Positions 44,126 to 60,921 of a stretch of DNA of 64,000 nt are shown piece after piece. Within the stretch, counting starts at the first letter, position 1. Each line of letters begins with the position of its first letter. The DNA lies in contig JAGPUW010000016.1 in assembly GCA_018069465.1 (NCBI GenBank), positions 14,548-78,547 of the forward strand, written 5' to 3'. Position numbers and translations under genes: made by a program. A model generated the notes under the pieces. That model searched no databases, was not told where the DNA came from, and worked only from the letters and a program-made list of their open reading frames with translations. The DNA comes from Gammaproteobacteria bacterium. Lineage in GTDB: Bacteria; Pseudomonadota; Gammaproteobacteria; Pseudomonadales; Porticoccaceae.

Positions 44126-45494
44126 TCTGGATTCGTCTGACGAGGTGGCCATTCGCGTACAAGGGCTGAGTAAATGCTACCAGATCTACGATAACCCTCG
44201 TGATCGTCTTAAGCAGTTTATTGTGCCCCGATTGCGACGTCTGTTTAGACGGCCGCCAAAGCAGTATTTTCGTGAGTTTTGGGCGCTTAACGATGTTTCA
44301 TTCGATGTCAAAAAGGGCGAAACCGTTGGCATCATCGGACGCAACGGTAGTGGTAAATCTACCCTGCTGCAAATGATCTGCGGCACACTTCACCCCACTA
44401 GCGGCAGCATTCAAACCAATGGTCGCATCGCCGCCTTGCTTGAACTGGGCTCCGGTTTTAATCCAGAATTTACTGGGCGCGATAATGTTTATATGAACGC
44501 TTCAGTGCTTGGTTTAAGCACTGAAGAGATAGACTCGCGCTTTGATGATATTGCTGCCTTTGCAGATATTGGCGAGTTTATTGAGCAGCCCGTTAAAACT
44601 TACTCCAGCGGAATGATGTTGCGCTTGGCATTCGCTGTTATCGCACATGTGGATGCAGATATTCTGGTAGTGGATGAGGCGCTGGCGGTTGGAGATGCTT
44701 TTTTCACCCAAAAGTGCATGCGCTATTTGCGCAACTTTATGAAAACTGGAACGGTGCTGTTTGTTAGTCATGACACGGGAGCGGTCGTTAATTTATGTAG
44801 CGAGGCTATTTTGTTGAATCGGGGATTAGTTGCTAAATCAGGCATACCGAAGGATGTTATTGAGCACTATCTAGCCACGCTTTATGAATCGAATCAGGTT
44901 ACAGATGGTGCTGTAACTGATGACCCCAGCACGGCATTAAGCCTGGAGCAGGGTTCAGGCGAATATCGTGATATGCGCGAGGCTCTAATTAATGCCTCTA
45001 CCTTGCGTAATGATATTGAGGTTTTTAAATTTGAATCCGATCAAGAAGGATTTGGCACCGGTGATGCGAAGATTGTATCGGTGCGCATTTTAGACTCGGA
45101 CGGCACGCCTTTAGCATGGGTGGTCGGTGGCGAGGATGTCATTCTTGAGATCCGGTGTTTGGCTTACAAAGATATACATCGCCCCATCGTTGGCTTTCAG
45201 TTCAAAGATCGGCTTGGCCAGATAGTGTTCGGTGACAACACATACCTTGCTTATCAATACAGCCCCCAGATGGTTGAGAAAAATTGTGAGCTCGTTGCAA
45301 GGTTCGAGTTTCGTTTGCCTGTACTTCCCAGTGGTGATTACAGTATCGCCGCCGCACTTGCTGATGGCTCACAAGATAATCATGTTCAGTATCACTGGAT
45401 GCACGATGCGCTGATTGTTCGTGTGCATGCGAGTTCAGTTTGTTTCGGTCTAATGGGAATTCCGATGAAAAAAATTATATTGGAAGCTCAATGA
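44115..45494 (+). CDS. wzt: Polysaccharide export ABC transporter ATPase (Wzt) with a roughly 200-aa C-terminal extension
   Basis: Walker A GRNGSGKST, signature YSSGMMLRLAF and Walker B ILVVDEAL. After about aa 250 there is a beta-rich extra domain (GTGDAKIVSVRILDSDG...VGFQFKDRLGQIVFGDNT...YSIAAALADG...HWMHDALIVRV), like the glycan-binding domain of O-PS Wzt proteins. ATG 44115. Confidence 0.85.
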   Translation: MSSDLDSSDEVAIRVQGLSKCYQIYDNPRDRLKQFIVPRLRRLFRRPPKQYFREFWALNDVSFDVKKGETVGIIGRNGSGKSTLLQMICGTLHPTSGSIQTNGRIAALLELGSGFNPEFTGRDNVYMNASVLGLSTEEIDSRFDDIAAFADIGEFIEQPVKTYSSGMMLRLAFAVIAHVDADILVVDEALAVGDAFFTQKCMRYLRNFMKTGTVLFVSHDTGAVVNLCSEAILLNRGLVAKSGIPKDVIEHYLATLYESNQVTDGAVTDDPSTALSLEQGSGEYRDMREALINASTLRNDIEVFKFESDQEGFGTGDAKIVSVRILDSDGTPLAWVVGGEDVILEIRCLAYKDIHRPIVGFQFKDRLGQIVFGDNTYLAYQYSPQMVEKNCELVARFEFRLPVLPSGDYSIAAALADGSQDNHVQYHWMHDALIVRVHASSVCFGLMGIPMKKIILEAQ

Positions 45495-46183
45495 TGCGAC
45501 TTTTTACAGGCCCATGCCCTGTTTGTGGTGGGGAGGAGTTTTCAACATGTTCCGTGCTCTGGCCGCAACTCATCAATACTTGGCAATTGTCTGAGGACGA
45601 GGTTGCCTATATCGATCGGCAGCAAGGCTTTCATTGTAAGCAGTGTGGTAATAACTTGCGTGCAATGGGTTTATCGCGGGCCATTATCAAAGAGTACGGA
45701 TTTGGAGCAACACTAAATCAATTCTGCGAGTCATTGAGTGATGTAAAACTCCTCGAGATAAATGCCGCCGGCAACTTGACTTCATTCTTTAAAAAACTGT
45801 CCTCGCACAGGTTGATTGAGTACCCTCAGTTCGATATGCAGAACCTAGATATCGAATCTGAGAGCGTTGATTTGGTGGTTCATTCGGATACATTGGAACA
45901 CGTGCCCAACCCTGAAAGGGCTCTCTCAGAATGTCGGCGAATATTGCGTGGCAATGGGAAATGCATTTTTACAGTCCCTATTATTGTTGGACGTATGACC
46001 CGGTCACGCGTTGGTCTCGCGCCTAGCTATCATGGTCAATCGGACGTGCCTGCGGATGATCAAATGGTTCACACAGAATTTGGGGCGGATGTTTGGCAAA
46101 CTGTCTTGAAAGCAGGGTTTTATTCATGTGAAATATTTTCGCTTGAATACCCATCGGCGCTGATAGTAATTGCAAGGAAATAA
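45491..46183 (+). CDS. Class I SAM-dependent methyltransferase with an N-terminal CxxC...CxxC zinc ribbon
   Basis: Its ATG overlaps the wzt stop (ATGA). Reads MMRLFTGPCPVCGG...FHCKQCGN, then a methyltransferase core (LLEINAAGN, VDLVVHSDTLEHVPNPERALSECRRILRGNGKCIFTVP). Confidence 0.7.
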   Translation: MMRLFTGPCPVCGGEEFSTCSVLWPQLINTWQLSEDEVAYIDRQQGFHCKQCGNNLRAMGLSRAIIKEYGFGATLNQFCESLSDVKLLEINAAGNLTSFFKKLSSHRLIEYPQFDMQNLDIESESVDLVVHSDTLEHVPNPERALSECRRILRGNGKCIFTVPIIVGRMTRSRVGLAPSYHGQSDVPADDQMVHTEFGADVWQTVLKAGFYSCEIFSLEYPSALIVIARK

Positions 46184-46189
46184 AAATTT

Positions 46190-49100
46190 ATGAAGTTTAC
46201 CGGTGAGCGCTTTATCCCTGTTGAACAAGGTAAAATCCGCCTCGAACATTATCATCGCTACGCGATAGTGCAGGATGTAGTAAAGGGAAAAAATGTCTTA
46301 GATGTGGCTTGTGGCGAGGGTTATGGCTCGTTTTTTATTGCCGATGTCGCGCGTTCTGTTGTTGGGGTCGATATTTCAGATGAGGCCGTGCAGCATGCAT
46401 CGCTTACTTATACGAAGTCTAACTTGACGTTTCGTCAAGCCAGCGCGACTGCCCTTGGTTTTGCTGATGCCTCTTTTGACGTTGTGGTGTCTTTCGAGAC
46501 TATTGAACACTTGGCAGAACAATCGCAAATGCTTGCGGAAATTAGGCGGGTGCTACGTTCTGATGGGGTGCTTGTGATTTCTTCTCCCAATCGGCCTATC
46601 TATTCTGAAGAAAGTGGGGAGCATAATGAATTTCATGTCAAAGAGCTTGATTTCAAGGAATTCGATGAATTACTGAGAACGCAATTCCCGGCGATTCAGT
46701 ATTTCGGTCAGCGGATGTTGATGGGTTCAGTGATTCAACCGCTGGAAGGCGGAAAAGACTCGTTCCGTGCCTGGCATGATGATGGTAAAACCTTGAAACC
46801 GTGTGCTGGACATTTGGCCGACCCAGTCTATTTTGTGGCAGTGTGTGGATTAGACAATAGCGACTTACCCGGTATTGAAATGTCGGTTCTTTATCCAGGC
46901 AAGCTGGATTTAGTGAAGCAATATGTGGGTTTTGCAAAGTGGGCGAAAAGACTTGAGAAAAGCGTATCCGAACGCGACGACCCGATAATTATGGAGCGCG
47001 ATGTTCAGATCGCGAGTCTTACAGATGAAGTGGTACGGCGTGGCGAATGGGCGATGCGTCTTGATGCCGAGCTTAAAGAAGAGCGAGAAAAATTTCTTTT
47101 AGTGACAAAAAGTAACTCTTGGCGCCTAACGCTACCTTTGCGTGAAATTCGACGGTGGTTGAGATCACCTGTAAGTCAAACTGAGCGTTATACAAGGGTA
47201 GTCTTGCGCCTCGGAAAGCGTGGATATCAGTCGCTACCGCTAAGCTATCAAACTAAGGCTGCGCACCGGCAATATATTGCTAAATGTTTTCCTGGGCTAT
47301 TAAGGGCAACAGGCACCCATCCCACCACGATTCCGGCATTCAGTGTTCCAACGCTACCAACGACACAGCAAGCTAACCATGAAGAGCCGGTTTTAGTTGC
47401 AGAGCTATCCTCAACTGCTCCTGATATTTCTATTCCGACCTCTGACAAGCCCTTAGTCAGCGTAATCGTGCCTATTTATGGCCAGTGTGATTACACATTG
47501 CGTTGTCTCATGTCAATTGCGGCGAACCTACCGCAGGCAGCATTCGAGGTGATTGTCGTGGACGATTGCTCGCCGGATAACTCATCTGATGTTCTGTCAC
47601 AAATCAGTGGTATCCATTTACTGCGCAACGAAAAAAACCAGGGCTTTATACGATCGTGCAACACCGGCGCAAAAGCGGCTCGGGGCGAATACCTTTATTT
47701 TCTTAATAATGATACCGAGGTAACGCCGGGCTGGTTGGATGAGTTGCTGCGCACTTTCCGTGAATTCCCGGGTACAGGGCTTGCTGGTTCAAAACTAATC
47801 TACCCTGATGGCCGCTTGCAAGAGGCTGGTGGCATTATTTGGCAGGATGGGAGTGCCTGGAATTTTGGACGGCTGCAAGTCGCCCTGCTACCCGTTTACA
47901 ATTACGCTAGGGAGGTCGACTACTGTTCGGGTGCCTCCATCATGGTGCCCAAAACGCTGTTTGATGAACTGGGTGGTTTTGACGAGCATTACCTGCCTGC
48001 CTATTGCGAAGATTCCGATCTCGCGCTCAAGGTGCGTGACAAGGGGCATCGGGTAATTTACCAGCCGATGTCGACCGTTATCCACTATGAGGGTATTACG
48101 TCGGGCACGGATACAACACAGGGCGTTAAAGCCTATCAAGTCGAGAACAGCAGAAAGTTGTTCGAGCGATGGCAACACCGTTTGCAAGCACACCAGACAC
48201 CAGGCGTGGATGTAGACAAGGCAAAAGATCGCAGAGCTTCACGGCGTGCCCTGGTAATTGATCACTGTACCCCCGCGCCCAACCAGGATGCGGGTTCTGT
48301 AACGGTATTCAATCTCATGCTGTTATTACGAGAAATGAATTTCCAGGTCACCTTCATCCCGGAAGATAATTTTCTGTATATGCCCGACTACACCACCGCG
48401 TTGCAGCAGGCAGGGATTGAAGTGCTCTATGCGCCTTATATCACCTCCGTTGAACAGCACTTGAAGGCATGCGATGACCGCTATGATTTAGCATTATTGT
48501 TTCGCCCGGTTGTGTTTGAGCGGAATATAAAGGTGATCCGTAAACATTGCCCGAAAGCCAAGGTGCTTTTCCACACTGTGGATTTACACTTCCTGCGCAT
48601 GTCACGTGAAGCCGAACTTCAATCAGACAAGGCTAAACAAAAAGCGGCAGACGAAATGAAGCAGCGCGAGCTGGCGGCGATTCGTGCCGCGGATGCCGCC
48701 ATTGTGCACAGTACTGTTGAACTGGAACTCCTCACTCCACTGCTTCCCGATGCCAGGCTTCACGTCTTCCCCTTAATAATGGATATCAAGGGAACGACGC
48801 AAACATTTAAAGAGCGTAGAGACGTTGTGTTTATTGGCGGTTATCAACACGCTCCAAATGTGGATGCCGTGCAGTACTTTGCGGCAGAAATCATGCCGCT
48901 GCTGCGCAAGCTATTGCCGGGAGTTCGCTTTTATGCGGTGGGCAGTAATCCTCCTGCCGAAATAAATGCTTTGGCATCGGATGATATTATCATCACCGGT
49001 TTTGTTGAAGACCTGACGCCACTGCTCGACAAGATGCGCGTTTCAGTTGCGCCCTTACGTTACGGTGCAGGCATCAAAGGAAAAATAGGCACCACGATGG

Positions 49101-50278
49101 CCGTTGGTCTGCCGGGTGTTGCAACATCGCTTGCAGTCGAAGGAATGTCGCTTAGCGATGGTGAAAATATTCTGGTGGCTGACGGGGCAAATGAGTTTGC
49201 TAATGCCATTGTTAAACTTTATCAGGATGAAGCCTTGTGGGTGAGTATTGGCCACAAGGGATTACAGTTTGCAGATAAGGTATGGGGTGCCGAAGCTTCG
49301 TGGAATATTCTGGCGTCAATAGTTACTGACTTGGGCTTTGGTGTGAAGCGTGGCGCGCACCTCCTCTCGCTTTATACTGAATCACAGGGGCCAGAAACAA
49401 ACAATAAAATTGTAGCGGCCCTTGAGCCTATTGCCTCAGTCAATAATCGAAAAGATTACGAGCAACTTTTGCAACGTGACACGATAAGCCAAATCAGCAA
49501 CATCGAGACACAACTTCTCAGTACCGCAAACTCAGAAGTCTTTTCTGTAGATGGTTTGTGTGTGCCCTGTGACCAAAAAGTAGCCTTTTTGGTTGACATG
49601 GCGTCCGGTGGTCAACGCATTGAAAATGGCTGGCTCCCCAATTGGCGAGAACGCTTAGAATGCCCTTTGTGCAGGATGAATAACCGTCAGCGTTTAATAG
49701 CAACTCTTGTAAAGCAAGCGCTTTTTGCCAAGCAAGAGCAACAGGTTTACTTTATGGAGCAGGTCACCCCCATCTACAATTGGGCGACAAAAACATTTAA
49801 AGAACATCGTCTCGTTGGTAGTGAATACCTTGGGTATGAATATGAAGGTGGGGCGACGATAAAAGGTATCCGGCATGAAGATGTCGAGAACTTGAGTTTT
49901 TCAAATGCAAGGTTTGACTTAATAGTGAGTAATGACGTGTTTGAGCATGTGCCCCATCCTGAAAAAGCCTTTGCTGAATGCGCTCGTGTGCTCAATGAAG
50001 GCGGGGTGATGTTGGCTACGATCCCTTTTCACAGTGCCAGCGACTTGTCCGTAATACGTGCGCGACTAAGTAGCGGTCAAGTCGAGCATGTTTTGCCGTC
50101 AGCCTACCACGGTAATCCTGTTTCTACGGATGGCTCTCTCGTGTTTACAGATTTTGGTTGGGACGTGTTAGAGCTTATAAAGGTAGCAGGATTTTCTGAT
50201 GTCCGTGTGGATGTCTATGCATCGCCGGAGTTTGGACATTTGGGTGGCGGGCAGATGGTTTTTAGGGCAAGGCGATAG
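46190..50278 (+). CDS. 1362-aa multidomain glycan-assembly protein: SAM-MTase / helical segment / GT2 / GT-B (GT4-like) / zinc-ribbon SAM-MTase
   Basis: One uninterrupted ORF. Domains read from the translation: (1) aa 1-185 methyltransferase ([24 protein letters not shown]). (2) aa about 245-325 charged helical stretch ending in [15 protein letters not shown]. (3) aa 421-660 GT2 ([31 protein letters not shown]). (4) aa about 685-1045 GT-B with ExxxxxxxE (EGMSLSDGE). (5) aa about 1120-1362 methyltransferase after CVPC...CPLC ([38 protein letters not shown]). Confidence 0.8.
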
Positions 50279-50384
50279 TGTTAGTTTTTAAAAACGGGTT
50301 TAAAATAAAAAAACTGGGCTACTGGTCGACCCTCACTGGCGATGTAGTAGTGGTAGTGATGTTTTGCAGTGCAAATTTACAGTG

Positions 50385-52322
50385 ATGGATATGGACGAAC
50401 GCAGTACTAACTTGATGCCATCTACATACATAGGGCGTAGTGAGATCCTCGCCGACATTGTGCTAATAATTTTGCTTACTGCACTTGTATTCGGCTTGGC
50501 CTATCACCCTTATTTCTTTGGCGATGAATTAATGGCGCATCGGTTGGCTATTAAGAGTGATTACTCTTTTACCTCGATTTTTCAGGGATTGAATGGTTAC
50601 AAGCCACGGTTGGTCTTCAACGGCATACTAGCTTTGCTGGCTGAATGGCAGGTATCACGGTTGGTGTATGCGGCACTGCTGGTAGGTTATATGGTTTGGA
50701 TCAACGTTCTATTGTATGGGGCTGTGCGGTACCTGTTCAATGGTGGCCGAGTACTGGCATGGCTACTGATTGCGGTCGTAATCACTTCGCGCTACGGAAC
50801 GATGCTTTATTTCGATTATGTTTCTGGGTTGGTTGAGCTATTGAGCACATCCTTACTTCTCAGTATGCTTTTATTGTCGTGGTTGGCGTGGGGTACAGGT
50901 TTCAGGTGGTGGTACGCGGTTGCTGCATTGGTCGCTTCGATTCTGTGTGTTTTCGTACATGAACGCTATATAGCGGGTTTGCTGGCTGCTGGTTTGGCGA
51001 TTGCGCTTGCCGAATGCTTGGGCTCCGCCGCCGAACGTCGAATACTTGTAGTTGGCTGGGCGTTATCGTTGGGTTTTGTGCCTCTGTTTTTGTTTGCTCT
51101 GGCTAATGAAACACTTGGTTCTTTACCTATGACAACCGGCGCTGCAGGGCAGCGAGTCATGCTAGGCGGCGACACGCTTTGGTCTGCACTGACTTATAGT
51201 TACAACGTCTTTTTAGGGGGTAATTACGGGCACGAGTGGTTCTGGGGCCATTACAACCACTTGCAATCTGTGGGCAAAATCATGGGTTTTGGCACGGTGG
51301 CCTGCACAATCATACTGTTAGTGGTGGTTGTCTTGAGGAAAGAGCTTGCATGGCATAGCCGTTGGTTGGTCGCTGGCCTTTTAGCGTTAGCCATAGCCTT
51401 GATCGCGATCGCAAGTTTGCCGGGGCCAAGTCATCAAGCGGCGCGTTACATGTTCCCGGTGGGTATTTTGGTAGCGATAGCCTGGATCATCATGGTGACA
51501 AACGTATGGCGATACGTTGGTATAGGATTGATTTTAGCTATTAATATTATGTACTTGCTTTTGGGATCATATGATTCAATCTCTAGTGTGTATTCGTCCC
51601 GCGCGGCGAACTCTGTGGCAGGTTCGCTGCTTGGTGTCATGCCAAATGGCAGAAGTGGTTTGGTCGTGGGCAATAATGACGATTTTTGGTCGATTGGTGG
51701 TGGCGCTGCTTTTGATATGGGGCCTAGGCAAGGCGATACATTTAGCAAGGTTAATCTGAAATCTTCGGTATATATAGATCCATTTGTAGAGGGGAGGGCC
51801 TTCGATCCTGCACTCTACGATTTCGGGTTGGCTTTCAATGGTTTTGGTCCGCATCGGACTGCCCGTTACCGTTTGGTTTCAGTCGACACAGCCCTAGTTT
51901 TGGCTGGAATTTCGGACGTGGAAAACTTGCCAGTAAATACTGTGCTTGGAAGTCGTGATACCTGGGCAGAGTGGCAATGGAACGAGCAACCGAATCAAAT
52001 CGAAGGGGCAGTGGCACTACGTGCCGGCACGGAAGGTTGGCGTGCTCTGCCTGTCGTTGCCTTGGATGGGCGTTGGTTAGTATATCGCGCCCGTGCTAAA
52101 AGTGGCGCGCGAGTGCCTATGCGTCTACAAGTCAACTGGCACGCTAAGCAGGATAATCGCTTCTTGTCTGCGATGATCGAAGTGGTTTATCCGAACGAAA
52201 CATGGAATTCGTACGTGACTTTGCTCAAGGCGCCACCAGGTGCTGGCATTGGCTATGTTTATGCGACTTTGCATGAAGGGGTTCAGGGTGTGGTGGAATT
52301 GAAATCGGTGGAATTAAAGTGA
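50385..52322 (+). CDS. Polytopic membrane protein with a C-terminal soluble domain; candidate GT-C-fold periplasmic glycosyltransferase
   Basis: About 10-12 hydrophobic segments over aa 30-450. An acidic motif, YFFGDELMAH, follows the first TM, which is the usual place for the GT-C catalytic Asp/Glu. The C-terminal 200 aa or so are hydrophilic and beta-rich. The start is uncertain (TTG 50364, ATG 50385 or ATG 50391). The function is inferred from the neighbouring GtrB/GtrA-like genes. Confidence 0.5.
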   Translation: MDMDERSTNLMPSTYIGRSEILADIVLIILLTALVFGLAYHPYFFGDELMAHRLAIKSDYSFTSIFQGLNGYKPRLVFNGILALLAEWQVSRLVYAALLVGYMVWINVLLYGAVRYLFNGGRVLAWLLIAVVITSRYGTMLYFDYVSGLVELLSTSLLLSMLLLSWLAWGTGFRWWYAVAALVASILCVFVHERYIAGLLAAGLAIALAECLGSAAERRILVVGWALSLGFVPLFLFALANETLGSLPMTTGAAGQRVMLGGDTLWSALTYSYNVFLGGNYGHEWFWGHYNHLQSVGKIMGFGTVACTIILLVVVVLRKELAWHSRWLVAGLLALAIALIAIASLPGPSHQAARYMFPVGILVAIAWIIMVTNVWRYVGIGLILAINIMYLLLGSYDSISSVYSSRAANSVAGSLLGVMPNGRSGLVVGNNDDFWSIGGGAAFDMGPRQGDTFSKVNLKSSVYIDPFVEGRAFDPALYDFGLAFNGFGPHRTARYRLVSVDTALVLAGISDVENLPVNTVLGSRDTWAEWQWNEQPNQIEGAVALRAGTEGWRALPVVALDGRWLVYRARAKSGARVPMRLQVNWHAKQDNRFLSAMIEVVYPNETWNSYVTLLKAPPGAGIGYVYATLHEGVQGVVELKSVELK

Positions 52323-52341
52323 AGTGCATGGGAATAATTTT

Positions 52342-53295
52342 ATGGCGCAAGAAAGAAAATTAGTTTCTATAGTAGTACCTTTTTTCAACGAGGGCGAAGG
52401 GGTTGAATATTTCTACCAGGCTATTTGTACTATTTTCGATCAAGTACCTGACTACAGTTTCGAGGTGGTATGCGTAGATGACGGGAGTCATGACGATACA
52501 TTAAACAAGTTGATCGACATTGTTGGCCTTGATCCGCGTTTCCGTGTCATTGAGTTCTCGCGGAATTTTGGTAAGGAAGCCGCGCTAACCGCCGGTATCA
52601 ATGCTGCGAAAGGTGATGCTGTTATACCATTCGACGCCGATCTTCAAGACCCACCAGAATTGATTCCGACTCTGATCACGGAGTGGCAGCAAGGCGCAGA
52701 TGTTGTACTTGCCCGCAGAGTCGACCGAAGTGTTGATTCATTCCTTAAGAGGAAAACGGCTGGGATGTTCTACCGATTTCACAATCTTATTTCCTCAGTA
52801 AAAATTCCTGAAAATGTCGGCGATTTTCGGTTGATGAATCGTGCTGTAGTTGATGCGTTAAATCAACTTCCAGAACGGCAGCGTTTCATGAAGGGCTTGT
52901 TTGCTTGGGTAGGTTTCAAAACCGCAGTTGTGGATTACACGAGAAATTCGCGAGCAGTGGGTACAACGAAATTTTCAGGGTGGAAACTCTGGAACTTTGC
53001 CCTTGAAGGGTTTACCAGCTTTAGTACAACACCACTTAAAGTATGGTTCTATATTGGGGGTGTTGGGGCTCTTTTAACCTTTTTCTACGCTACATTCATT
53101 ATTTTGAGAACTTTGATATACGGTGTGGATATTCCCGGTTATGCCTCTTTATTGGTAGCAGTTTTATTTTTTGGCAGCCTTCAACTAATTAGCGTTGGAA
53201 TGTTGGGTGAATATATGGGGCGAATTTACATGGAAACTAAGCAGCGACCGCTATACGTTGTTCGAGCGCGATACGAGGATAAAAATGAACCCTGA
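52342..53295 (+). CDS. GT2 polyprenyl-phosphate glycosyltransferase (GtrB/ArnC/DPM1-like)
   Basis: VSIVVPFFNEGEG, VCVDDGSHDDT, DADLQDPPELI, and two C-terminal TM helices (VWFYIGGVGALLTFFYATFII; LLVAVLFFGSLQLISVGMLGEYMGRIY). This is the GtrB architecture. ATG 52342. Confidence 0.8.
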   Translation: MAQERKLVSIVVPFFNEGEGVEYFYQAICTIFDQVPDYSFEVVCVDDGSHDDTLNKLIDIVGLDPRFRVIEFSRNFGKEAALTAGINAAKGDAVIPFDADLQDPPELIPTLITEWQQGADVVLARRVDRSVDSFLKRKTAGMFYRFHNLISSVKIPENVGDFRLMNRAVVDALNQLPERQRFMKGLFAWVGFKTAVVDYTRNSRAVGTTKFSGWKLWNFALEGFTSFSTTPLKVWFYIGGVGALLTFFYATFIILRTLIYGVDIPGYASLLVAVLFFGSLQLISVGMLGEYMGRIYMETKQRPLYVVRARYEDKNEP

Positions 53296-54025
53296 TGCCT
53301 ATTTAGAAATGGCGGATACTGAAGCCCGTCATTGGTGGTTTACTGGTCGACGAGCCATACTGGCACATCTCATCGATACTTTTGATTTGCCCCCAAACGC
53401 AAGAATCCTAGAAATAGGTTCTGGCACTGGAGGGAATTTGCAAATGCTGTCCACTTTCGGACAAGTCAGCGCCCTGGAGATGGATGCCACTGCTCGTGAA
53501 ATAGCAATGAATAAAACAGGCAGGTGTTTTGATATACGTCCCGGTTTTTGCCCTACTGACATCCCTTTCGTCGGCGAGAAATTTGACTTGATTTGTCTTT
53601 TTGACGTGCTGGAACACATTGATGAGGATGTTGAAACACTCATAGCAGTGAAGGCGCTTCTGGCCGAAGGAGGTCGGGTTTTGGTAACTGTTCCTGCGTA
53701 TCGCTGGCTTTGGAGCGCTCACGATGTCTTTCTTCACCATAAGCGGCGTTATTCAAAGGCTGAGTTTAACCAAAAAATATTTACTTCAGGGCTGCATCCT
53801 GTGAAGATTTCACACTTCAATACTATTCTTTTTCCGCTTGCAGCCATTGTTCGAATGAAAGACAAGTTATTTGGTAACTCGTTAGCAAGCGGAAGTAGCA
53901 TCCCGCCGGCACCAATCAACCGTCTTTTTACAGCTATATTCAGAGGGGAGCGGTTGTTGCTATCAAAAATTAACCTCCCATTCGGAGTTTCGTTACTTGG
54001 TGTACTTCGTGCTGGGCACTTTTAA
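53285..54025 (+). CDS. Class I SAM-dependent methyltransferase
   Basis: ATG 53285 overlaps the GtrB-like stop by 11 nt. Contains HWWFTGRR, ILEIGSGTGGN and FDLICLFDVLEHIDED. Its stop lies 1 nt before the GtrA-like ATG. Confidence 0.75.
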   Translation: MNPDAYLEMADTEARHWWFTGRRAILAHLIDTFDLPPNARILEIGSGTGGNLQMLSTFGQVSALEMDATAREIAMNKTGRCFDIRPGFCPTDIPFVGEKFDLICLFDVLEHIDEDVETLIAVKALLAEGGRVLVTVPAYRWLWSAHDVFLHHKRRYSKAEFNQKIFTSGLHPVKISHFNTILFPLAAIVRMKDKLFGNSLASGSSIPPAPINRLFTAIFRGERLLLSKINLPFGVSLLGVLRAGHF

Positions 54026-54026
54026 T

Positions 54027-54404
54027 ATGGCCTCATCTAGACTCACAAGACAGGCCCAGCGATTTGCTCTCTCCGGTTTACTCGTAACGGGTATCCATGT
54101 ATTTTCAGCGTCGGGTCTTATTCTTCTGCTAGTTGTAGACCCTCCGATCGCCAATGGTCTGGCATTCGTAGTTGCAACTGTGTTTTCGTACACGATCAAT
54201 ACTCTGTGGAGCTTCTCCAGCCCTCTACACGGCAGAAACCTTATTCGTTTTATGGCGGTTTCAATGTTCGGTTGTTTTCTTGCCGTGAGTGTTGCTAGCG
54301 CTGCTCAACACTATGATTTGCACTATTTATACGGAATTGGGCTGGTTGCTTTAGTCGTTCCGCCAGCTACGTTTTTACTACATAGTTTTTGGACGTATAG
54401 ATGA
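54027..54404 (+). CDS. GtrA-family small membrane protein (putative lipid-linked sugar translocation component)
   Basis: 125 aa from ATG 54027 with four TM segments and GtrA-like motifs (RFALSGLLVTGIHV; FSYTINTLWSF). Confidence 0.75.
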   Translation: MASSRLTRQAQRFALSGLLVTGIHVFSASGLILLLVVDPPIANGLAFVVATVFSYTINTLWSFSSPLHGRNLIRFMAVSMFGCFLAVSVASAAQHYDLHYLYGIGLVALVVPPATFLLHSFWTYR

Positions 54405-54525
54405 TACATGTTGCTCTAGAAAGTATTTCACAAATACGTAAAAAAGAAATTTCTATACGACTAGTTTGGATCGAAAGAGGGTTTGGGTGGGCGCTTTTTT
54501 GGTCACTAAAGATTAGGGGTATTTC

Positions 54526-55371
54526 ATGTCAGTTGTAATAATTGGAGCAAGCGGCTATATCGGATCGTGCCTACTTGAGAAGGCACCTCTCGATTCCTGG
54601 GGTACGGCATCTAGTGGCCGTACCCCAGGCTTGATCGACTTTGATCTTGCGCATTCTGACGGGTTTCCGTGGCATCGATTATTTAAAGATGACGTTGTCG
54701 TTATGACTGCCGCTATCTCGTCGCCCGATATTTGTGCGCATGAGCATGCACGTGCCTGGGCTGTGAATGTAACGGGCACATCGGAATTCATCACTAATGT
54801 GATTGCGCGTGGAGGTCGCGTTATTTTTTTCTCCAGTGATGCCGCCTATGGTGAACACAGCGATATATTTGACGAAAATACAGTAAGTCATCCAGTTGGT
54901 GAATATGCTGTGATGAAGCATGAGGTTGAAAAACGATTTCAGGGTAATCCATCCTTTAAGAGCATCCGTCTCTCCTATGTTTTTTCGAAGGAAGATAAAT
55001 TCACTCAGTACCTAAATGGCTGTGCTTCAAGTGGTGAAGAGGCCGAGTTGTTCCACCCGTTCTATCGGGCAATCGTTCACCGTGACGATGTTATTGATGG
55101 AGCGCTCGCACTTGCCACGAGGTGGGACGAGTTCCCTCAGCAGATTATTAACTTTGGTGGTCCCGAGGTGCTTTCAAGAATTGACTTTGCTCAATGTTTG
55201 AAGAATGCTGCATTGCCTAATCTGCGATTTATTGTAAAGGATCCCGGGCCAGATTTTTTTAACAATCGACCGCGAGTTATTGCGATGTCGTCTGAGGTTT
55301 TGCCGAAGCTACTTGCTCGGCCTTCCCACACCTTGGCTGAAGCAGTAAAAATTGAGTTCTTATCAAAGTAG
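54526..55371 (+). CDS. Extended SDR, RmlD-like reductase; candidate GDP-6-deoxy-4-keto-heptose 4-reductase (DmhB/WcbJ-like)
   Basis: 281 aa with Rossmann motif IIGASGYIGS and catalytic YAVMK. The function is inferred from its position directly upstream of the 4,6-dehydratase and the heptose activation genes. Confidence 0.55.
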   Translation: MSVVIIGASGYIGSCLLEKAPLDSWGTASSGRTPGLIDFDLAHSDGFPWHRLFKDDVVVMTAAISSPDICAHEHARAWAVNVTGTSEFITNVIARGGRVIFFSSDAAYGEHSDIFDENTVSHPVGEYAVMKHEVEKRFQGNPSFKSIRLSYVFSKEDKFTQYLNGCASSGEEAELFHPFYRAIVHRDDVIDGALALATRWDEFPQQIINFGGPEVLSRIDFAQCLKNAALPNLRFIVKDPGPDFFNNRPRVIAMSSEVLPKLLARPSHTLAEAVKIEFLSK

Positions 55372-55410
55372 ATTTTACAGGGTATTGAGTTGTCATTTTA
55401 GAGGGAAAAG

Positions 55411-56442
55411 ATGAGAAAAAAATTATTGATAACGGGCATTACCGGTCAGGTGGGGTCTCAACTGGCAGATTATGTTTTAGAAAATACTGAATATGACGTT
55501 GTCGGGATGATGCGTTGGCAGGAGCCGATGGATAATCTGTATCACCTGGCGGGCAGGATTAATAGCAAGGATAGAATTAGTGTCTATTATGCAGACCTGA
55601 ATGATTCTGCGGCCATATCCCGAATGCTTCGGGATATAAAGCCGGAATTCATTTCCCACCTAGCTGCTCAGTCCTACCCTAAAACATCGTTCAATATTCC
55701 GATTGAAACTTTGCAGACCAATATTATTGGTACGGCAAATCTACTGGAGAATATTCGGCAACTAAAGGAAATCGACGGGTATGACCCCGTCGTGCACGTG
55801 TGTTCTTCTAGCGAAGTTTACGGCAAGGCGAAACCCGGTATGCCGCTGTCAGAAGATACTAACTTTCATGGGGCAAGTCCCTATAGTATAAGTAAAATTG
55901 GAGCGGACTATTTAGCCCAATTTTATGGGGAGGCCTATGGAATACGGACATTTATTACAAGAATGGGCACGCACTCCGGCCCCAGGCGGAGTGATGTTTT
56001 TTTTGAAAGCACTGTAGCTAAGCAGATTGCTTTGATTGAGGCTGGTCTGCAGGAGCCTTTTATTAAGGTTGGCAATTTATCAAGCACAAGAACTTTTCAG
56101 GATGCTAGAGACGCTGTCAGGGCATATTTTTTACTTCTCGAGGAAAGCGAGAAGGGGAATATAAAATGTGGTGACTATTTCAATATTGCTGGCGAAGAAG
56201 CCTTTAAATTACCTGAAGTGATTGAGCTTTTCTTAAGCATGAGTGCGCGGCAAGATATTAAGGTTGTTACGGATGAAGAAAGAATGCGTCCGATTGATGC
56301 TGACTATCAAATGTTTGATAACACCAAGATTCGCATGGCGATCGACTGGAAGCCTGAGATACCTGCCAGGCAAATGTTTAGCGACTTACTGAATCACTGG
56401 AGGGATGAAATTTCCAAAGGGAAGATACCTCTAAACAGGTGA
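55411..56442 (+). CDS. GDP-sugar 4,6-dehydratase, GDP-D-glycero-alpha-D-manno-heptose dehydratase type (DmhA/WcbK-like)
   Basis: 343 aa with LITGITGQVGSQLADYVLENT.YDV.GMMRWQEPMDN, HLAAQSYPKTSF, SSSEVYG, the YSISK catalytic motif and GTHSGPRRSDVFFES. This closely resembles the heptose-specific Gmd paralogues of Campylobacter, Burkholderia and Yersinia as I remember them. Confidence 0.7.
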   Translation: MRKKLLITGITGQVGSQLADYVLENTEYDVVGMMRWQEPMDNLYHLAGRINSKDRISVYYADLNDSAAISRMLRDIKPEFISHLAAQSYPKTSFNIPIETLQTNIIGTANLLENIRQLKEIDGYDPVVHVCSSSEVYGKAKPGMPLSEDTNFHGASPYSISKIGADYLAQFYGEAYGIRTFITRMGTHSGPRRSDVFFESTVAKQIALIEAGLQEPFIKVGNLSSTRTFQDARDAVRAYFLLLEESEKGNIKCGDYFNIAGEEAFKLPEVIELFLSMSARQDIKVVTDEERMRPIDADYQMFDNTKIRMAIDWKPEIPARQMFSDLLNHWRDEISKGKIPLNR

Positions 56443-56499
56443 CTGATTTGGCTCTTTGTCGAGTGGCGATCGCTACGAATAAATTTTGGAATATAAATA

Positions 56500-57528
56500 A
56501 TGATCATAAGAGCACGCGCACCCTTGCGCCTTGGCTTGGCCGGCGGCGGCACCGATGTTTCACCTTATTGCGACACGCACGGCGGCTATGTTCTCAATGC
56601 TACGATTGACCGTTACGCCTATGCCGTCATTAAAACCTTGGATGTACCGGAGGTGCGTTTCTTAGCCACCGATCAGCAGGTGGTCAAGGTTAAGCCGGTA
56701 GGTGAGCCTTATGCCCTGAACGGTAAGCTCGATCTGCACAAGGCGGTTTATAACCATATGGTGGAGCACTATAACGGCGGACAGCCCATTCCTTTGGAGC
56801 TGAGTACCTTTTGCGATGCACCGGCGGGGTCTGGCCTCGGGTCATCCTCTACCCTGGTGGTGGTGATGATTCGCGCGTTTGCGGAGTTACTGAATCTACC
56901 TCTTGATGACTACACGATTGCTCACCTGGCCTACAAACTTGAGCGTGTGGATTGTGGTTTGCTAGGAGGGCGGCAGGATCAGTATTCAGCTACTTTTGGC
57001 GGCTTCAATTTCATGGAGTTTTATGCCGATGAGCGCGCGGTGATTAATCCTTTACGTGTTAAGAACTGGATTATTTGCGAGTTGGAAGCTTCTTTGCTGC
57101 TGTTTTATACAGGTGTTTCGCGTGAGTCGGCCAAAATTATTGCTGACCAAAGTAGTAATGTGAAAACGGGCTTGGTCAATACTATGGATGCGATGCATGG
57201 TATTAAGCAAGAAGCACTTGTTATGAAGGAGTGCCTTTTAAGAGGCGATTTTGGTGGCATAGTTGATTCGATGCGCCAAGGCTGGGAAAGTAAAAAGCGC
57301 TCTGCTGAGACTGTATCTAACCCCCATATCGATTCTGTTTATGATGCGGCCATCAACTCTGGAGCATTGGCGGGCAAAGTGTCTGGTGCTGGTGGCGGTG
57401 GTTTTATGATGTTTTTTGTGCCCCCCGACAAGCGGATGGATGTGGTCAGAGCATTGAATTGCTTTGAGGGTCAAGTGAGTAACTGTCATTTCACCAAGCA
57501 TGGCACGCAGGCATGGAGAGTTGAATGA
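56500..57528 (+). CDS. hddA: GHMP-family D-glycero-alpha-D-manno-heptose 7-phosphate kinase (HddA/WcbL-like)
   Basis: 342 aa, [20 protein letters not shown], with GHMP motif [10 protein letters not shown] and C-terminal [11 protein letters not shown]. Overlaps gmhA (ATGA). Confidence 0.8.
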
Positions 57529-58109
57529 ATAGCTATATCACAGCACAAATAGCCGAAACCCAAAGGCTGATGACTGCCATGCTGGCAGATGCCTTGTTGC
57601 TGGCAAAGGTGGAGGCTGCGGCCCAGGCATGTATTGACTGTATGAAGGCTGGGGGCAAAATATTGTTGGCAGGGAATGGTGGCAGTGCCGCCGATGCACA
57701 GCATATTGCCGGTGAGTTTGTTAGCCGTTTTGCTTTTGACCGGCCAGGGCTACCTGCGGTTGCGTTGACAACCGACTCATCGATTCTTACTGCCATTGGT
57801 AATGACTATGGCTATGAAAAGCTGTTTGCCCGCCAGGTTCAGGCATTAGGTAATCAAGGCGATGTTTTTATCGGTTATTCAACTTCGGGTCGCTCGCCCA
57901 ATATACTTCTAGCACTCGAGGAGGCTCGATCATCTGGCCTGGTATGCATTGGCTTGACGGGTAATCGAGGAGGAGTGATAGGCGAATTGTGCGATTATTT
58001 GTTGGAAGTGCCGTCCAGTGATACGCCAAAAATTCAGGAGGGGCACCTGGTGCTGGGCCATACTTTGTGCGGCCTGGTTGAAAATCATATCTTTACACCT
58101 TCAGCATGA
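57525..58109 (+). CDS. gmhA: Sedoheptulose 7-phosphate isomerase GmhA (SIS)
   Basis: 194 aa with [37 protein letters not shown] and EGHLVLGH. Overlaps the next gene (ATGA). Confidence 0.85.
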
Positions 58110-58801
58110 AGGCGATTGTACTTGCCGGTGGATTTGGTACGCGACTTCGCGAACGAGTACCTGATTTACCTAAACCCATGGCTCCGGTGGCGGGCCGCCC
58201 TTTTCTGGAATATGTTCTCGACAAGTTGGTGTTAGGGGGCGTGAGTGAAATCATTCTTTCAGTGGGATATAAAGCCAATATCATTATTGAGCATTTCGGC
58301 GATGTTTATCGCAATGTTGCCGTTAGTTATGCAGTTGAGGAAGAGCCCTTGGGGACAGGTGGCGCAATTTTTCATGCGCTTAAAGGCCAGGGTGAGGAAG
58401 CTACTCTTGTACTGAATGGCGATACCTTTTTAGATGTTGACTATAGGGAGCTTATCCTTTGGTACGCTCAATCACCTACACAAGTCGCGATGGTGTTAAG
58501 GGAAGTGCCGGATGTGGCCCGTTATGGTTCTGTGCTGGTTTCAGGTGAACAGGTTTCTAGCTTTGTGGAGAAGGGCAAGGCTGGCTCTGGTTTGATAAAC
58601 GCGGGTGTTTATTTTATTAATCCAGGTGTTTTTGGAACTTACTCCCTCTCCGGGAAATTTGAATTGGAGGCTGATTTACTCCAAAGGCACTGTCGTACAT
58701 TAACCCCCCGAGCTTTTATCAGCGATACTTTTTTTATTGATATCGGCGTGCCGGATGATTACGACCGTGCTCAGCACGAACTTCCAGCTCTATTACGATA
58801 G
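58106..58801 (+). CDS. hddC: D-glycero-alpha-D-manno-heptose 1-phosphate guanylyltransferase (HddC/WcbM-like)
   Basis: 231 aa with nucleotidyltransferase motif [15 protein letters not shown]...PKPM, GTGGA, NGDTF and [11 protein letters not shown]. Confidence 0.8.
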
Positions 58802-58855
58802 ACGGGGTGTTGGAGTTAATGTTGGTTGAATTTCCTATTGAATAATAGTCATTTT

Positions 58856-58873
58856 GCGCATTTTCGAATGCGC
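58856..58873. terminator. Perfect 7-bp hairpin between convergent hddC and the GT2 gene (possible terminator)
   Basis: GCGCATTttcgAATGCGC, overlapping the GT2 stop codon by 1 nt. There is no clear U-run on either strand. Confidence 0.35.
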
Positions 58874-59889
58874 TACATCTTCCCCATGACAGCTGCAAAC
58901 ATCAGCCCTAATCCGCCGACTATTGTCTGGCGGTAAACACCAGATGCCAAAAGACGCGTAACCCTGGTTAGAATATTACCGCTGCGCGCCTTTCTAAAAG
59001 CATCAAGAATAGCCTTGTTTTCAGGAGTAAGGAGTTCACTTGCCTTTTGTAATGCTTCAATATTAATGTCATTCCATCTTTTAAAGCGCCCCTCCAGTAA
59101 CAGCTTGATACGTTTACTACTTGCTCGCCAACCGGGTGGGGCGCCCAATACATTTTGATCGTGTTGCCGGTATAAGACTCGCGGTTCAGTGTCGTATAGC
59201 ACAACGCCGCCCACGGCATTAACCATGATGTAGGCCCACCAGTCGTGACTTGCGATATTTACCAGGCCGATCTTGCAGAGAATATCGCGCGCGGCTTTAT
59301 TCATTACCATGGTGTTACCGCTTGCCAGGCTCTGCACTAATGCATTATTGAAGCTTGGCCGTCTTTTATATAATGGTGAGTAGCCTGTTTTATTATTGGC
59401 CTCATCGATTAGTCGTGTGCGGGCGCAATACAGTGTGGGGACATCAGCAGGTATTGCCTGTAATTGCGAAAGGGCTTGTGAAAGTTTGTCGGCTTGCCAA
59501 ATATCATCCTGATCGGCAAAGGCAAAAAAATCACCTTGTATATTTGGGTTACAGGTTAGCGACAGGAAGTTAGCGGCGAAGCCTTCTTGTGGGCCGCTGG
59601 TGATATGAAGTTTGTTTTCGCCCCACGCAGTGCGATAGGTATTGAGGATGTCCAGGGTTGAGTCTGTGGAGCCATCGTCAGAGGCCCATATCTTGAAGTT
59701 CTGGTGTTCCTGTTTATCAATTGAGTCTAATTGCTCTTTTAGAAAGCGAGCGCCGTTATAGGTGCATAACAGTATGGCGACGAGGGGCATGTCAGCAGGT
59801 TTTCCTGGGTTGATAAGGCTTGCGGTGTTAGCTTTTTGAGAGGTGTCTTTAGGTGCTTTATTACTGCTGTTAATGTCTGGCGCTGTCAT
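58873..59889 (-). CDS. GT2 family glycosyltransferase
   Basis: 338 aa with VAILLCTYNGARFL, ASDDGSTDST and FADQDDIW (DxD). It is the only island biosynthesis gene on the minus strand. Confidence 0.8.
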   Translation of the reverse strand: MTAPDINSSNKAPKDTSQKANTASLINPGKPADMPLVAILLCTYNGARFLKEQLDSIDKQEHQNFKIWASDDGSTDSTLDILNTYRTAWGENKLHITSGPQEGFAANFLSLTCNPNIQGDFFAFADQDDIWQADKLSQALSQLQAIPADVPTLYCARTRLIDEANNKTGYSPLYKRRPSFNNALVQSLASGNTMVMNKAARDILCKIGLVNIASHDWWAYIMVNAVGGVVLYDTEPRVLYRQHDQNVLGAPPGWRASSKRIKLLLEGRFKRWNDINIEALQKASELLTPENKAILDAFRKARSGNILTRVTRLLASGVYRQTIVGGLGLMFAAVMGKM

Positions 59890-59982
59890 TGATGGCTCGG
59901 ACTTCCATTTCGTTAGGGAGTAAATAGGGCCGCAGCAGGGATTGTACCTGATTTGATTTGAGCTGCTTTGCGAGGCCAGCGC

Positions 59983-60099
59983 TTTGCATAAAGGTAAGCT
60001 GCACTCGCAAGATAGCCTGGTTGACCCCGCCGATGAGCGGTGGTCGGTTGAAGAGTGACTTTACTCGATACCCATGCCTTAGTTTGCTTGTCAGAAGGT
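59983..60099 (+). pseudogene. Relic copy of the phd/vapC junction (last ~24 codons of the antitoxin plus first ~15 codons of the PIN toxin)
   Basis: 117 bp aligning without gaps to 61135-61251, with 7 mismatches by my hand count. The antitoxin-frame reading LHKGKLHSQDSLVDPADERWSVEE-stop is preceded by an in-frame TGA at 59954-59956. The vapC-frame reading VTLLDTHALVCLSEG then diverges and stops after 28 codons. Confidence 0.75.
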
Positions 60100-60128
60100 T
60101 TGATTGTTATAGATGCGATGTTTATACT
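60100..60128 (+). promoter_or_regulatory. Candidate sigma-70 promoter of mazEF
   Basis: TTGATT (60100-60105), 17-nt spacer, TATACT (60123-60128). AGGAG RBS at 60153-60157 and ATG at 60163. The -35 element starts immediately after the relic repeat. Confidence 0.4.
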
Positions 60129-60162
60129 TGTGTCTATACGTTAGTTTCAAATAGGAGTCGGC

Positions 60163-60417
60163 ATGACAGAAGTAACCTTAGATATAAAGAAATGGGGTAA
60201 TAGTTTAGGGGTGCGATTACCCGCTGTTATTGCTCGTGAGGCAAACTTGCATTCTGATCAGCGAGTACGAATTTCTATTATCGATAAACAAATTATTATC
60301 ACACCCATTGTAAGTGAAGCGCTGACATTGGAGGAGCGACTCGCTAATTTTGATCCTGCGGTTCATGGCGGTGAAGCTATGTCTGTTTCAGAATCTGTGG
60401 GCGCTGAGAAGTGGTAA
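60163..60417 (+). CDS. mazE: MazE-family (AbrB/SpoVT fold) antitoxin
   Basis: 84 aa, IKKWGNSLGVRLPAVIAREANL..DQRV.ISI.D..IIITP, with an acidic C-terminal tail ending in W, like E. coli MazE. Confidence 0.85.
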   Translation: MTEVTLDIKKWGNSLGVRLPAVIAREANLHSDQRVRISIIDKQIIITPIVSEALTLEERLANFDPAVHGGEAMSVSESVGAEKW

Positions 60418-60788
60418 CAAGAACTGCAAAGTGGTCGCCTAATCGTCAGGATATTATTTGGATTGACTGTAATCCTCAATCGGGACATGAAATGAGGGAT
60501 GTCCATCCTTTTTTGGTGTTAAGTCCGAAAATTTTTAATGATAAAACATCATTGGTGATCGGTTTGCCGATGACTACAGCTGAATATAATGCTGATAACC
60601 CTTTTGCGCTTGCTGTGGGGAATGCGTCTGGAAAAAAGGTAAATAAAACAAGTTATGTACTTTGCCATCAACCAAAATCATTTGATTGGCGTTCCCGCCA
60701 GGCAAAACCACATCCTTTAGGTGTCATGAATGACGCCTTGTTTTCTCAAGTCTGTGACCGACTTAATCAGATTATCCAGCTTGCATGA
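60411..60788 (+). CDS. mazF: MazF/PemK-family endoribonuclease toxin
   Basis: 125 aa from a GTG start overlapping the mazE stop. P.RQDIIWIDCNPQSGHEM...HPFLVLSPKIFNDKTSLVIGLPMTT...Q.KSFDWR.R aligns with E. coli MazF (GDLIWVDFDPTKGSEQAGHRPAVVLSP..YNNKTGMCLCVPCTT..QVKSIAWRAR). Confidence 0.85.
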   Translation: MVTRTAKWSPNRQDIIWIDCNPQSGHEMRDVHPFLVLSPKIFNDKTSLVIGLPMTTAEYNADNPFALAVGNASGKKVNKTSYVLCHQPKSFDWRSRQAKPHPLGVMNDALFSQVCDRLNQIIQLA

Positions 60789-60921
60789 AAAGATCACGGT
60801 AAAGGGCTTTGCCCCCTTTATCGACACCTTTAATCCATTTTATATGAAGCCAGCCCCTATTGAGTATGATGTTGGCGGCTCGTTTAGCCAATTACGCCTA
60901 TGAACCTTTTCGGCCCTGCTG

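Follow-up and report, generated by a model that had tools for sequence, protein, structure and literature searches.

In this study, we analyzed four adjacent genes (positions 50385-54404) in a 64,000-nucleotide stretch of DNA, hereafter the window, from contig JAGPUW010000016.1 of a Gammaproteobacteria bacterium (GenBank assembly GCA_018069465.1, contig positions 14,548 to 78,547). On balance we favor the reading that these genes encode a Gtr-type system for extracytoplasmic glycosylation, enlarged by a fourth component, that decorates an O-polysaccharide of the ATP-binding cassette (ABC) transporter route. The products are a large membrane protein, here called MemX, a GtrB-type glycosyltransferase of family 2 (GT2), an S-adenosylmethionine (SAM)-dependent methyltransferase (MT) and a GtrA-family protein. 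In Gtr systems, GtrB makes an undecaprenyl-phosphate-linked sugar (Und-P-sugar), GtrA is implicated in its translocation and an enzyme of the glycosyltransferase C (GT-C) type transfers the sugar in the periplasm. The GT2 synthase, GtrA, the clustering of the genes and the variable transferases of a Gtr-type system are all present here, and a GT-C fold with a periplasmic acidic loop is predicted from a structural model with moderate scores.

The proposed mechanism would begin with GtrB placing a hexose, most likely glucose, on undecaprenyl phosphate (Und-P) at the cytoplasmic face of the membrane. MT would then O-methylate the hexose in the cytoplasm, most probably as the Und-P-linked intermediate; this step is suggested by the coupling of the genes, by a conserved GtrB-MT-GtrA triad and by MT::GtrA fusions, and it is placed in the cytoplasm because SAM is available only there. 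GtrA would carry the (methyl)hexose on its lipid across to the periplasmic side, where MemX would bind the exported polymer through a domain resembling carbohydrate-binding modules (CBMs) and add a (methyl)hexose branch before ligation to lipid A-core. The data show the domain identities, the packing of the genes, the resemblance in fold, the reasoning on topology, the fusions, the conservation of the triad and a cassette swap; from them we infer which sugar is used, what MT methylates and at which position, that GtrA acts in flipping, and the nature of the acceptor. A more far-reaching version can be put forward only tentatively, namely that four-component periplasmic glycosylation of this kind is widespread, with MT editing the Und-P-sugar before the GtrA flip so that surface glycans gain O-methyl-hexose branches not installed by any cytoplasmic glycosyltransferase, and that MemX founds a new GT-C family with a CBM.

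The open reading frames and their translations give four co-directional, almost gapless genes on the + strand (Table 1). The GTG of GtrB (52324) begins 1 nt past the MemX stop, GAGGA stands ahead of the MT ATG (53285), MT and GtrB (stop TGA, 53293-53295) share 11 nt, and the GtrA ATG (54027) lies 1 nt beyond the MT stop. A gap of 121 nt separates the end of GtrA from the next gene. A consensus scan of the module found promoter-like sites in no excess over shuffled sequence and a single terminator-like site, inside the MT gene (53659-53678), where shuffles give about 6. Judging by these few sites and by the packing of the genes, the module is probably one transcription unit, and the packing points to translational coupling of MT on both sides, to GtrB and to GtrA. 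A preliminary description of this DNA had listed four consecutive genes with these spacings around MT, and had read the other three products as a polytopic protein of roughly 645 aa with FFGDE after its first transmembrane (TM) helix and a soluble C-terminal domain, a GT2 with two C-terminal TM helices in the GtrB/ArnC layout, and a four-TM GtrA-family protein; all of these features were recovered.

The GT2 matched PF00535 (E 5e-34), its best NCBIfam matches were PgfS and ArnC, both polyprenyl-phosphate glycosyltransferases, and its two C-terminal TM helices lie at about residues 236-300. Over 302 residues it shares about 58% identity (E 1e-107) with Synechocystis GtrB (PDB 5EKP), for which lipid mass spectrometry and a radio-assay showed formation of Und-P-glucose from UDP-glucose (PMC4728340); the structure paper contains no discussion of neighboring genes (PMC4728340). 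On account of this identity to an assayed enzyme the donor is read as UDP-glucose, and the window GtrB most likely loads a hexose, glucose from UDP-glucose, onto undecaprenyl phosphate. The GtrA-family protein matched PF04138 above the gathering score (E 1.2e-12) and contains four hydrophobic segments in 125 aa. By analogy with the role established for GtrA proteins, it is proposed to be a flippase or carrier of the Und-P-linked sugar.

MT is a class I SAM-dependent methyltransferase by its domain matches (Methyltransf_23, E 1e-14; Methyltransf_11/12/25), and its relatives in the PDB are generic. Hydropathy indicates a soluble protein without a TM helix. The class I domain carries conserved N- and C-terminal extensions, the former with the motif TE-RHWWF-GRR, and there is no coiled coil and no kinase domain. 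A total of 3395 homologues were found in the protein database at E<=1e-10, many of them 63-85% identical, and few had a name in the source databases (a Chlorobium and a Vicinamibacterales metagenome-assembled genome, MAG). Their alignment contains about 70 invariant positions, well beyond the SAM motifs, including T-E-x-R-H-W-W-F-x-G-R-R, D-V-L-E-H, T-V-P-A, H-x-R-R-Y and the P, G and S of a C-terminal LPFGVS motif. Among the homologues listed are two MT::GtrA fusions (P0130 and P0133), in which MT forms the N-terminus and the C-terminal half aligns with the window GtrA. The fusion is 373 aa long.

The GtrB-MT-GtrA order is shared with four other loci (L022, L023, L024 and L025) and with many loci of a neighborhood survey. 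The triads of unrelated contigs are close to that of the window (GtrB 73-78%, MT 65-73% and GtrA 60-64% identity, the GtrA values being those for L022 and L023), and each is followed by a large membrane protein without detectable homology to MemX. The survey covered 80 metagenome loci encoding MT homologues of 39-67% identity. A GtrB-type GT2 stood directly upstream of MT on the same strand in 35 of the 57 loci with at least 1 kb of upstream sequence, and among the 21 loci flanked by 3 kb or more on either side, 18 had GtrB within 5 kb. In 18 of 55 loci, GtrA was directly downstream of MT. The polytopic partners near the triads fall into many unrelated clusters, with GT87, PMT_2/PTPS-related and DUF6311 types and several without a Pfam match. 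A GT39-type membrane protein stands beside the MT of plasmid pMOL30, and a Sphingomonas plasmid carries a GtrA-MT pair. The co-occurrence of GtrB, HWWF-motif methyltransferases and GtrA, for which the preliminary description had proposed such a survey, is thus recurrent. By this distribution the MT family is a dedicated neighbor of GtrB, and the triad is most likely a mobile, widely distributed donor cassette with MemX as the locus-specific transferase. A phage-borne origin, as for classical gtr genes, was also considered and is unsupported, since a scan of a viral contig collection found no MT relatives.

The coupling of MT to GtrB in the survey would leave the same genetic signature if the Gtr system worked as proposed and MT acted on the soluble nucleotide sugar, for example making UDP-O-methyl-glucose from UDP-glucose ahead of loading by GtrB. 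Other pathways are known in which nucleotide sugars are methylated, the sequence of the reactions cannot be read from the gene order GtrB-MT-GtrA, and a protein without a TM helix suits this substrate as well. Against it, MT is fused in several organisms to the membrane protein GtrA, next to the lipid-linked intermediate; GtrB closely resembles an enzyme that uses plain UDP-glucose; and the triad GtrBs, 73-78% identical to one another when compared at the whole-sequence level, give no sign of a remodeled donor pocket. We regard methylation of the nucleotide sugar as unlikely, and the lipid-linked substrate is favored because the GtrA fusion tethers MT to the membrane. The earlier suggestion that MT hints at a methylated lipid-linked donor is strengthened by the GtrB linkage, the fusions and the triad, although it is not proven by them. 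No characterized example of a methyltransferase step in a Gtr-type system or of Und-P-sugar methylation was found, in line with the preliminary description, in a literature search of incomplete coverage, so that a precedent may exist.

MemX has 11 hydrophobic helices followed by a non-hydrophobic C-terminal part of about 225 aa, and the sequence AYHPYFFGDE stands directly after the first TM helix. The family is small: 44 homologues were found in a database of 5.8 billion (5.8e9) proteins, and in a library clustered at 50% (1.84 billion representatives) 76 of these passed a cutoff of E<=1e-30 and 534 one of E<=0.001. MemX itself had no Pfam or NCBIfam match. When 39 family members were compared with Pfam at E<=1, and likewise 10 distant relatives from the clustered library, no family was hit apart from fused GtrA or DUF5648 domains. 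A MemX profile found nothing among PDB sequences at E<=10. There was no significant profile match to the GT-C sequence families compared (GT39/PMT, PMT_2, GT83 ArnT, GT87, YfhO, Glucos_trans_II and others). With hhalign, the probability against a GT39 protein was 0.2, and no homology was detectable to the large membrane proteins that follow other triads. Since no sequence match was obtained, MemX is taken as an undescribed family and not as a member of a known GT-C family. Two relatives (P0028 and P0032) carry a DUF5648 domain in place of the C-terminal CBM-like domain.

An AlphaFold (AF2) model of MemX built on the homologue alignment reached a predicted local distance difference test (pLDDT) score of 89 and a predicted template modeling (pTM) score of 0.83. 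In Foldseek, the full model matched the GT-C enzymes EmbB, EmbA/B and AftD best among PDB structures (E 7e-6 to 6e-5). The next matches were CBM16, CBM22 and CBM11 modules (target-normalized template modeling score, TM-score, 0.5-0.63) on the C-terminal domain, which in the model is a CBM-like beta-sandwich beginning at about residue 420. A second model, restricted to residues 1-425, was used to search with the TM domain alone. It matched PglB, AftD, ArnT, DPY19, EmbA/B, Pmt1/2 and STT3 with probabilities of 0.66-0.97 and query-normalized TM-scores (TMq) of 0.35-0.45; pyrophosphatases, CLC channels and transporters all stayed below 0.2, so that only GT-C enzymes were high on both probability and TM-score.

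The topology was derived from hydropathy on the model helices and from positive-inside loops. The short loops GTGFR, GSAAERR and RKELA share one side, taken as the cytoplasm, which places the N-terminus inside. On the opposite, periplasmic side lie the D47/E48 loop, the HERY motif, a 50-residue loop (245-294) and the whole C-terminal domain. An alignment of 39 homologues showed that H41, P42, F45, G46, D47 and E48 of the HPYFFGDE loop (residues 41-48) are invariant, as are K73-P74-R75, R92, S135-R136, Y145, E193-R194 within HERY, N280, G282 and R354. All of the invariant polar residues D47, E48, K73, R75, H192-E193-R194 and R354 are predicted to be periplasmic. By modeled fold and topology MemX is GT-C-like while belonging to no described sequence family; it is predicted to be a periplasmic GT-C-like transferase, and its D47/E48 loop, which would face the periplasm, is the predicted catalytic candidate. 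The preliminary description had cast MemX as the periplasmic transferase, had called for a fold search of the 50385-52322 product against GT-C structures, and had staked its reading on a GT-C fold and a periplasmic acidic loop. The search found a GT-C resemblance with moderate scores, fold and loop are both supported by the model and the topology, and a GtrA::MemX fusion lends the assignment further support.

This fusion (P0035) occurs in one metagenomic lineage (L015-L017; 4934-6895 in L015) and carries GtrA at the N-terminus of MemX; in L015, a GT2 and a methyltransferase with overlapping ends lie directly upstream. The fusion protein is 653 aa long and is without the C-terminal beta domain. 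The loci L020 and L021 have the order Wzt-BigMTGT-MemX-GtrA-GtrB-MT (BigMTGT being a giant protein with methyltransferase and glycosyltransferase domains), that is, the same parts as the window in another order. Because the set recurs in other orders and as fusions, the four-gene association is not due to chance. The methyltransferases of all MemX loci were considered as orthologues, an idea that was rejected: the L020 MT is 29% identical to that of the window, while L015 encodes a class I methyltransferase unrelated to it. The non-orthologous enzymes in these two intervals point to repeated recruitment of methylation into the MemX module. Fourteen genome loci with MemX relatives were found, mostly in Xanthomonadales, and usually have wzm, wzt, the giant transferase and hddA-gmhA-hddC alongside. 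GtrB homologues were near MemX in 12 of these (L003-L014), and none was seen in L001 and L002.

The closest view of how the module changes comes from L028, where BigMTGT, MemX, the reductase and the dehydratase are 70%, 69%, 63% and 91% identical to those of the window. Between MemX and the reductase, L028 encodes a nucleotidyltransferase, a 4,6-dehydratase, an aminotransferase, transketolase-like subunits, an epimerase, GtrA and GtrB; this GtrB is only 34% identical to the window GtrB, and there is no methyltransferase. In the window, MT is the only sugar-modifying gene in the interval. Further variants, with thiamine pyrophosphate (TPP)-enzyme and aldolase genes, are found in L018 and L029. 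The cassette swap relative to L028 marks the MemX-reductase interval as the variable part of a conserved locus, where the lipid-linked donor is specified. Beside MemX, L028 and L029 also encode proteins of 606 aa (3343-5163) and 625 aa (7707-9584), respectively, that have no Pfam match, are absent from the window and showed no homology to MemX in hhalign; they could be second membrane transferases.

Several observations weigh against a four-component system with MemX as its transferase. The GT-C call rests on moderate structural scores, with TM-scores below 0.5 (0.42-0.45) and weak E-values for the TM domain alone (0.1-1), and the searches of Pfam, NCBIfam, PDB profiles and hhalign gave no sequence link to any known GT-C family. 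GtrA stands beside MT less often than GtrB does (6 of the 21 loci), to which a limit of sensitivity may contribute. The Xanthomonadales MemX loci have GtrB and no MT orthologue, so that MemX can, as a rule, function without MT. Three other methyltransferase domains are encoded in the locus, implying that main-chain methylation is also going on. MemX orthologues that are 59-69% identical face very different donor cassettes, which calls either for flexible donor specificity or for a pairing looser than assumed.

The methyltransferase-rich surroundings, namely the methyltransferase encoded at 45440-46183 and two domains of the 1362-aa giant, would also suit an MT that merely sits in the operon and methylates the main chain or its terminus in the manner of WbdD, or an unrelated molecule. 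The CBM of Wzt, which is of the kind that recognizes modified chain ends (PMC11127046), fits this explanation, as do the Xanthomonadales loci that work without an MT orthologue. We give it little credence. A main-chain substrate is disfavored because MT keeps its GtrB neighbor where no Wzm/Wzt is seen nearby (L025 and pMOL30), and moreover the comparison with L028 shows MT, GtrB and GtrA replaced as one block, and MT is fused to GtrA in some organisms. With neither a coiled-coil ruler nor a kinase domain, and with GtrB instead of a polymerase as its conserved neighbor, MT differs from WbdD-type terminating methyltransferases, and the terminator role fits the 1362-aa protein (46190-50278) better.

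The pairing of MemX with the triad is open to another doubt. MemX homologues almost always stand beside heptose (or gmd/rmd-like) genes and Wzm/Wzt/BigMTGT rather than beside the triad, and none of the 80 surveyed MT loci contained a MemX homologue. Together with the diversity of the cassettes facing similar MemX proteins, this would suit a MemX that uses another lipid donor, such as heptose or 6-deoxyheptose, or has another periplasmic task, while the triad serves a different acceptor through a GT-C enzyme encoded elsewhere. The GtrA::MemX fusion with GtrB and a methyltransferase directly upstream, the contiguous MemX-GtrA-GtrB-MT of L020 and the frequent GtrB homologue near MemX in the genome loci argue the other way, as do the single nucleotide between MemX and GtrB in the window and the lack of any other GT-C candidate in the module. 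A separate role for MemX is considered improbable, and the four genes are read below as one system.

Like the phage-encoded GtrA-GtrB-GtrC systems of Shigella and Salmonella, the module combines a GT2 that is probably an Und-P-glucose synthase and has two C-terminal TM helices, a four-TM GtrA and a predicted, variable polytopic periplasmic transferase, and there too conserved A and B genes combine with non-homologous transferases, as for the triad here. Unlike those systems, it has MT inserted between GtrB and GtrA and coupled to both, its acceptor probably belongs to the Wzm/Wzt (ABC) route and not to Wzx/Wzy, MemX resembles no known Gtr transferase in sequence and bears a CBM-like C-terminal domain, and no copy was present in the viral contig collection. 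Editing of an Und-P-sugar in the cytoplasm, ahead of its flipping and of its transfer by a GT-C enzyme, is known from deformylation by ArnD and deacetylation by Francisella NaxD, and ArnC of the ArnC/ArnD/ArnT pathway is a homologue of the window GtrB (E 1e-41). By analogy, ArnD and NaxD may be taken as the closest precedent for editing a polyprenyl-phosphate monosaccharide, although there the edit is a hydrolytic deacylation, the acceptor is lipid A and the flippase is ArnE/F and not GtrA.

In architecture, MemX matches ORF12 (GT136) of Citrobacter youngae O1 as far as the published description of the latter goes. The substrate of ORF12 is an O-polysaccharide of the ABC-transporter route with a methylated terminus, which the enzyme modifies once it has been exported (Kelly et al. 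2024, PMC11127046). ORF12 is roughly 650 aa long and spans the membrane 11 times; a small helical periplasmic domain bearing the catalytic acidic residues follows the first TM helix, and the C-terminus forms a beta-rich CBM (PMC11127046). Its catalytic residues are D31, E34, H106 and R349 (PMC11127046). Set against this description, membership of MemX in GT136 is doubtful because the motif after the first TM helix differs (D31-x-x-E34-Y35 in ORF12, G46-D47-E48 in MemX). The ORF12 system further differs in its donor, Und-P-ribofuranose made from phosphoribosyl pyrophosphate (PRPP) by a different synthase, in its flippase, which is a multidrug and toxic compound extrusion (MATE) protein and not GtrA, and in having no methyltransferase step (PMC11127046). 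The mycobacterial EmbA/B/C and AftD likewise have a GT-C domain followed by extracytoplasmic CBMs and use a polyprenyl-phosphate monosaccharide donor (PMC11127046). They are larger, however (1000-1400 aa), share 12-16% identity with MemX at TM-scores of 0.3-0.45, and have decaprenyl-P-arabinose as donor and a different acceptor.

The same four protein types as in the window are encoded on plasmid pMOL30 of Cupriavidus metallidurans CH34 (L026, 171374-175246; the gtrM1/gtrA1/gtrB1 region) in the order MT-GT39-GtrA-GT2. The class I methyltransferase is 31% identical to MT and the GT2 49% identical to GtrB. Unlike the window, pMOL30 has a different gene order and an ArnT-like GT-C enzyme of the known family GT39, and lies beside metal efflux genes instead of an O-antigen locus. 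The cluster adjoins sil-type resistance-nodulation-division (RND) efflux genes and a porin gene on this heavy-metal resistance plasmid, and the gtr1 region is listed in the literature as metal-induced, without an assigned function. What is new in the window relative to the GtrABC and GT136 systems, the architectural features of both of which it shares, is the coupled methyltransferase together with a transferase of an undescribed family.

The module is part of an island of about 20 kb (window positions 42000-62000) whose guanine-plus-cytosine (GC) fraction is 0.45-0.50, against 0.56-0.58 in the flanks; the principal genes are listed in Table 1.

Table 1. Genes of the four-gene module and of the surrounding O-polysaccharide island (positions in the window)
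Feature	Position	Strand	Length	Start and stop codons	Basis
Wzm	43295-44125	+			Pfam
Wzt with C-terminal Wzt_C carbohydrate-binding domain	44109-45494	+			Pfam
Methyltransferase	45440-46183	+	247 aa		Pfam
MT-GT2-GT4-MT polymerase/terminator-like giant (BigMTGT)	46190-50278	+	1362 aa		Pfam
MemX	50385-52322	+	645 aa	start ATG; alternative starts TTG 50364, ATG 50391	
GtrB-type GT2	52324-53295	+		start GTG 52324; alternative start ATG 52342	
SAM methyltransferase (MT)	53285-54025	+	246 aa	start ATG; stop TAA 54023-54025	
GtrA-family protein	54027-54404	+	125 aa	start ATG	
RmlD-like reductase	54526-55371	+			Pfam/NCBIfam
GMD-like 4,6-dehydratase	55411-56442	+			Pfam/NCBIfam
GHMP kinase, HddA-like	56500-57528	+			Pfam/NCBIfam
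SIS isomerase, GmhA-like	57525-58109	+			Pfam/NCBIfam
Nucleotidyltransferase, HddC-like	58106-58801	+			Pfam/NCBIfam

The set of Wzm, Wzt, methyltransferase and giant accompanies MemX homologues in at least 10 other loci, and this context identifies the locus as one for an ABC-transporter-dependent O-polysaccharide with a terminally modified chain. The giant consists of an N-terminal methyltransferase domain, a GT2, a GT4 (Glyco_trans_1_4) and a second, C-terminal methyltransferase domain, and by its make-up resembles a polymerase joined to a chain terminator in a single polypeptide; its homologues, 35-70% identical, accompany MemX in most related loci. Inspection of the translations by eye showed two CxxC pairs (CPVCGG...CKQCGN) ahead of the methyltransferase domain of the 247-aa protein and a similar pair (CVPCDQ...CPLCRM) ahead of the C-terminal methyltransferase domain of the giant, and these two may be paralogous zinc-ribbon methyltransferase modules. 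From its domains, the set at 54526-58801 is assigned to GDP-6-deoxy-heptose biosynthesis by inference, and homologues of HddA, GmhA and HddC directly adjoin MemX homologues in the Xanthomonadales loci. The giant (62% identical) and MemX (59%) also occur in L018, with gmd/rmd-like genes in place of the heptose set; on this comparison the backbones of the window and of L018 may be analogous, a 6-deoxy-D-manno-heptan and a D-rhamnan.

The window DnaG shares 87% identity with its counterpart in a 'Candidatus Reddybacter' MAG of Porticoccaceae type, and the housekeeping genes place the host in or near Porticoccaceae. Because of this DnaG match, a Methylomonas origin of the window, to which the name of contig L028 had pointed, was rejected. 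The island genes are 63-91% identical to those of L028, a contig binned as Methylomonas, and the O-antigen island looks like a horizontal acquisition between gammaproteobacterial orders. At its right edge, a PemK/MazF-like toxin (60411-60788, +) and a PIN-domain (VapC-like) protein (61192-61608, +) are encoded between a reverse-strand GT2 (58873-59889) and manC (61661-63091); L020 and L023 also have a PemK toxin, close to the module in the former and to the triad in the latter. Elsewhere in the window, a tRNA-Met (29657-29733, -) adjoins rpoD (29897-31729) and dnaG (31824-33875), a conserved macromolecular-synthesis neighborhood that is unrelated to the module.

Three-component systems of a lipid-linked sugar synthase, a flippase and a GT-C enzyme are the general way in which bacteria decorate finished surface glycans outside the cytoplasm. 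Serotype variation is driven by such decorations, which can also change the receptors of phages. MemX adds to them a GT-C-like family, as predicted from its model, that lies outside all Pfam and NCBIfam models, and the cassette swap between related loci shows O-antigen side branches diversifying through module exchange. If the proposed role of MT is true, methylation of a lipid-linked donor would be a new kind of edit, those known being hydrolytic (ArnD and NaxD), and it would explain the route by which some O-methyl sugars enter side branches.

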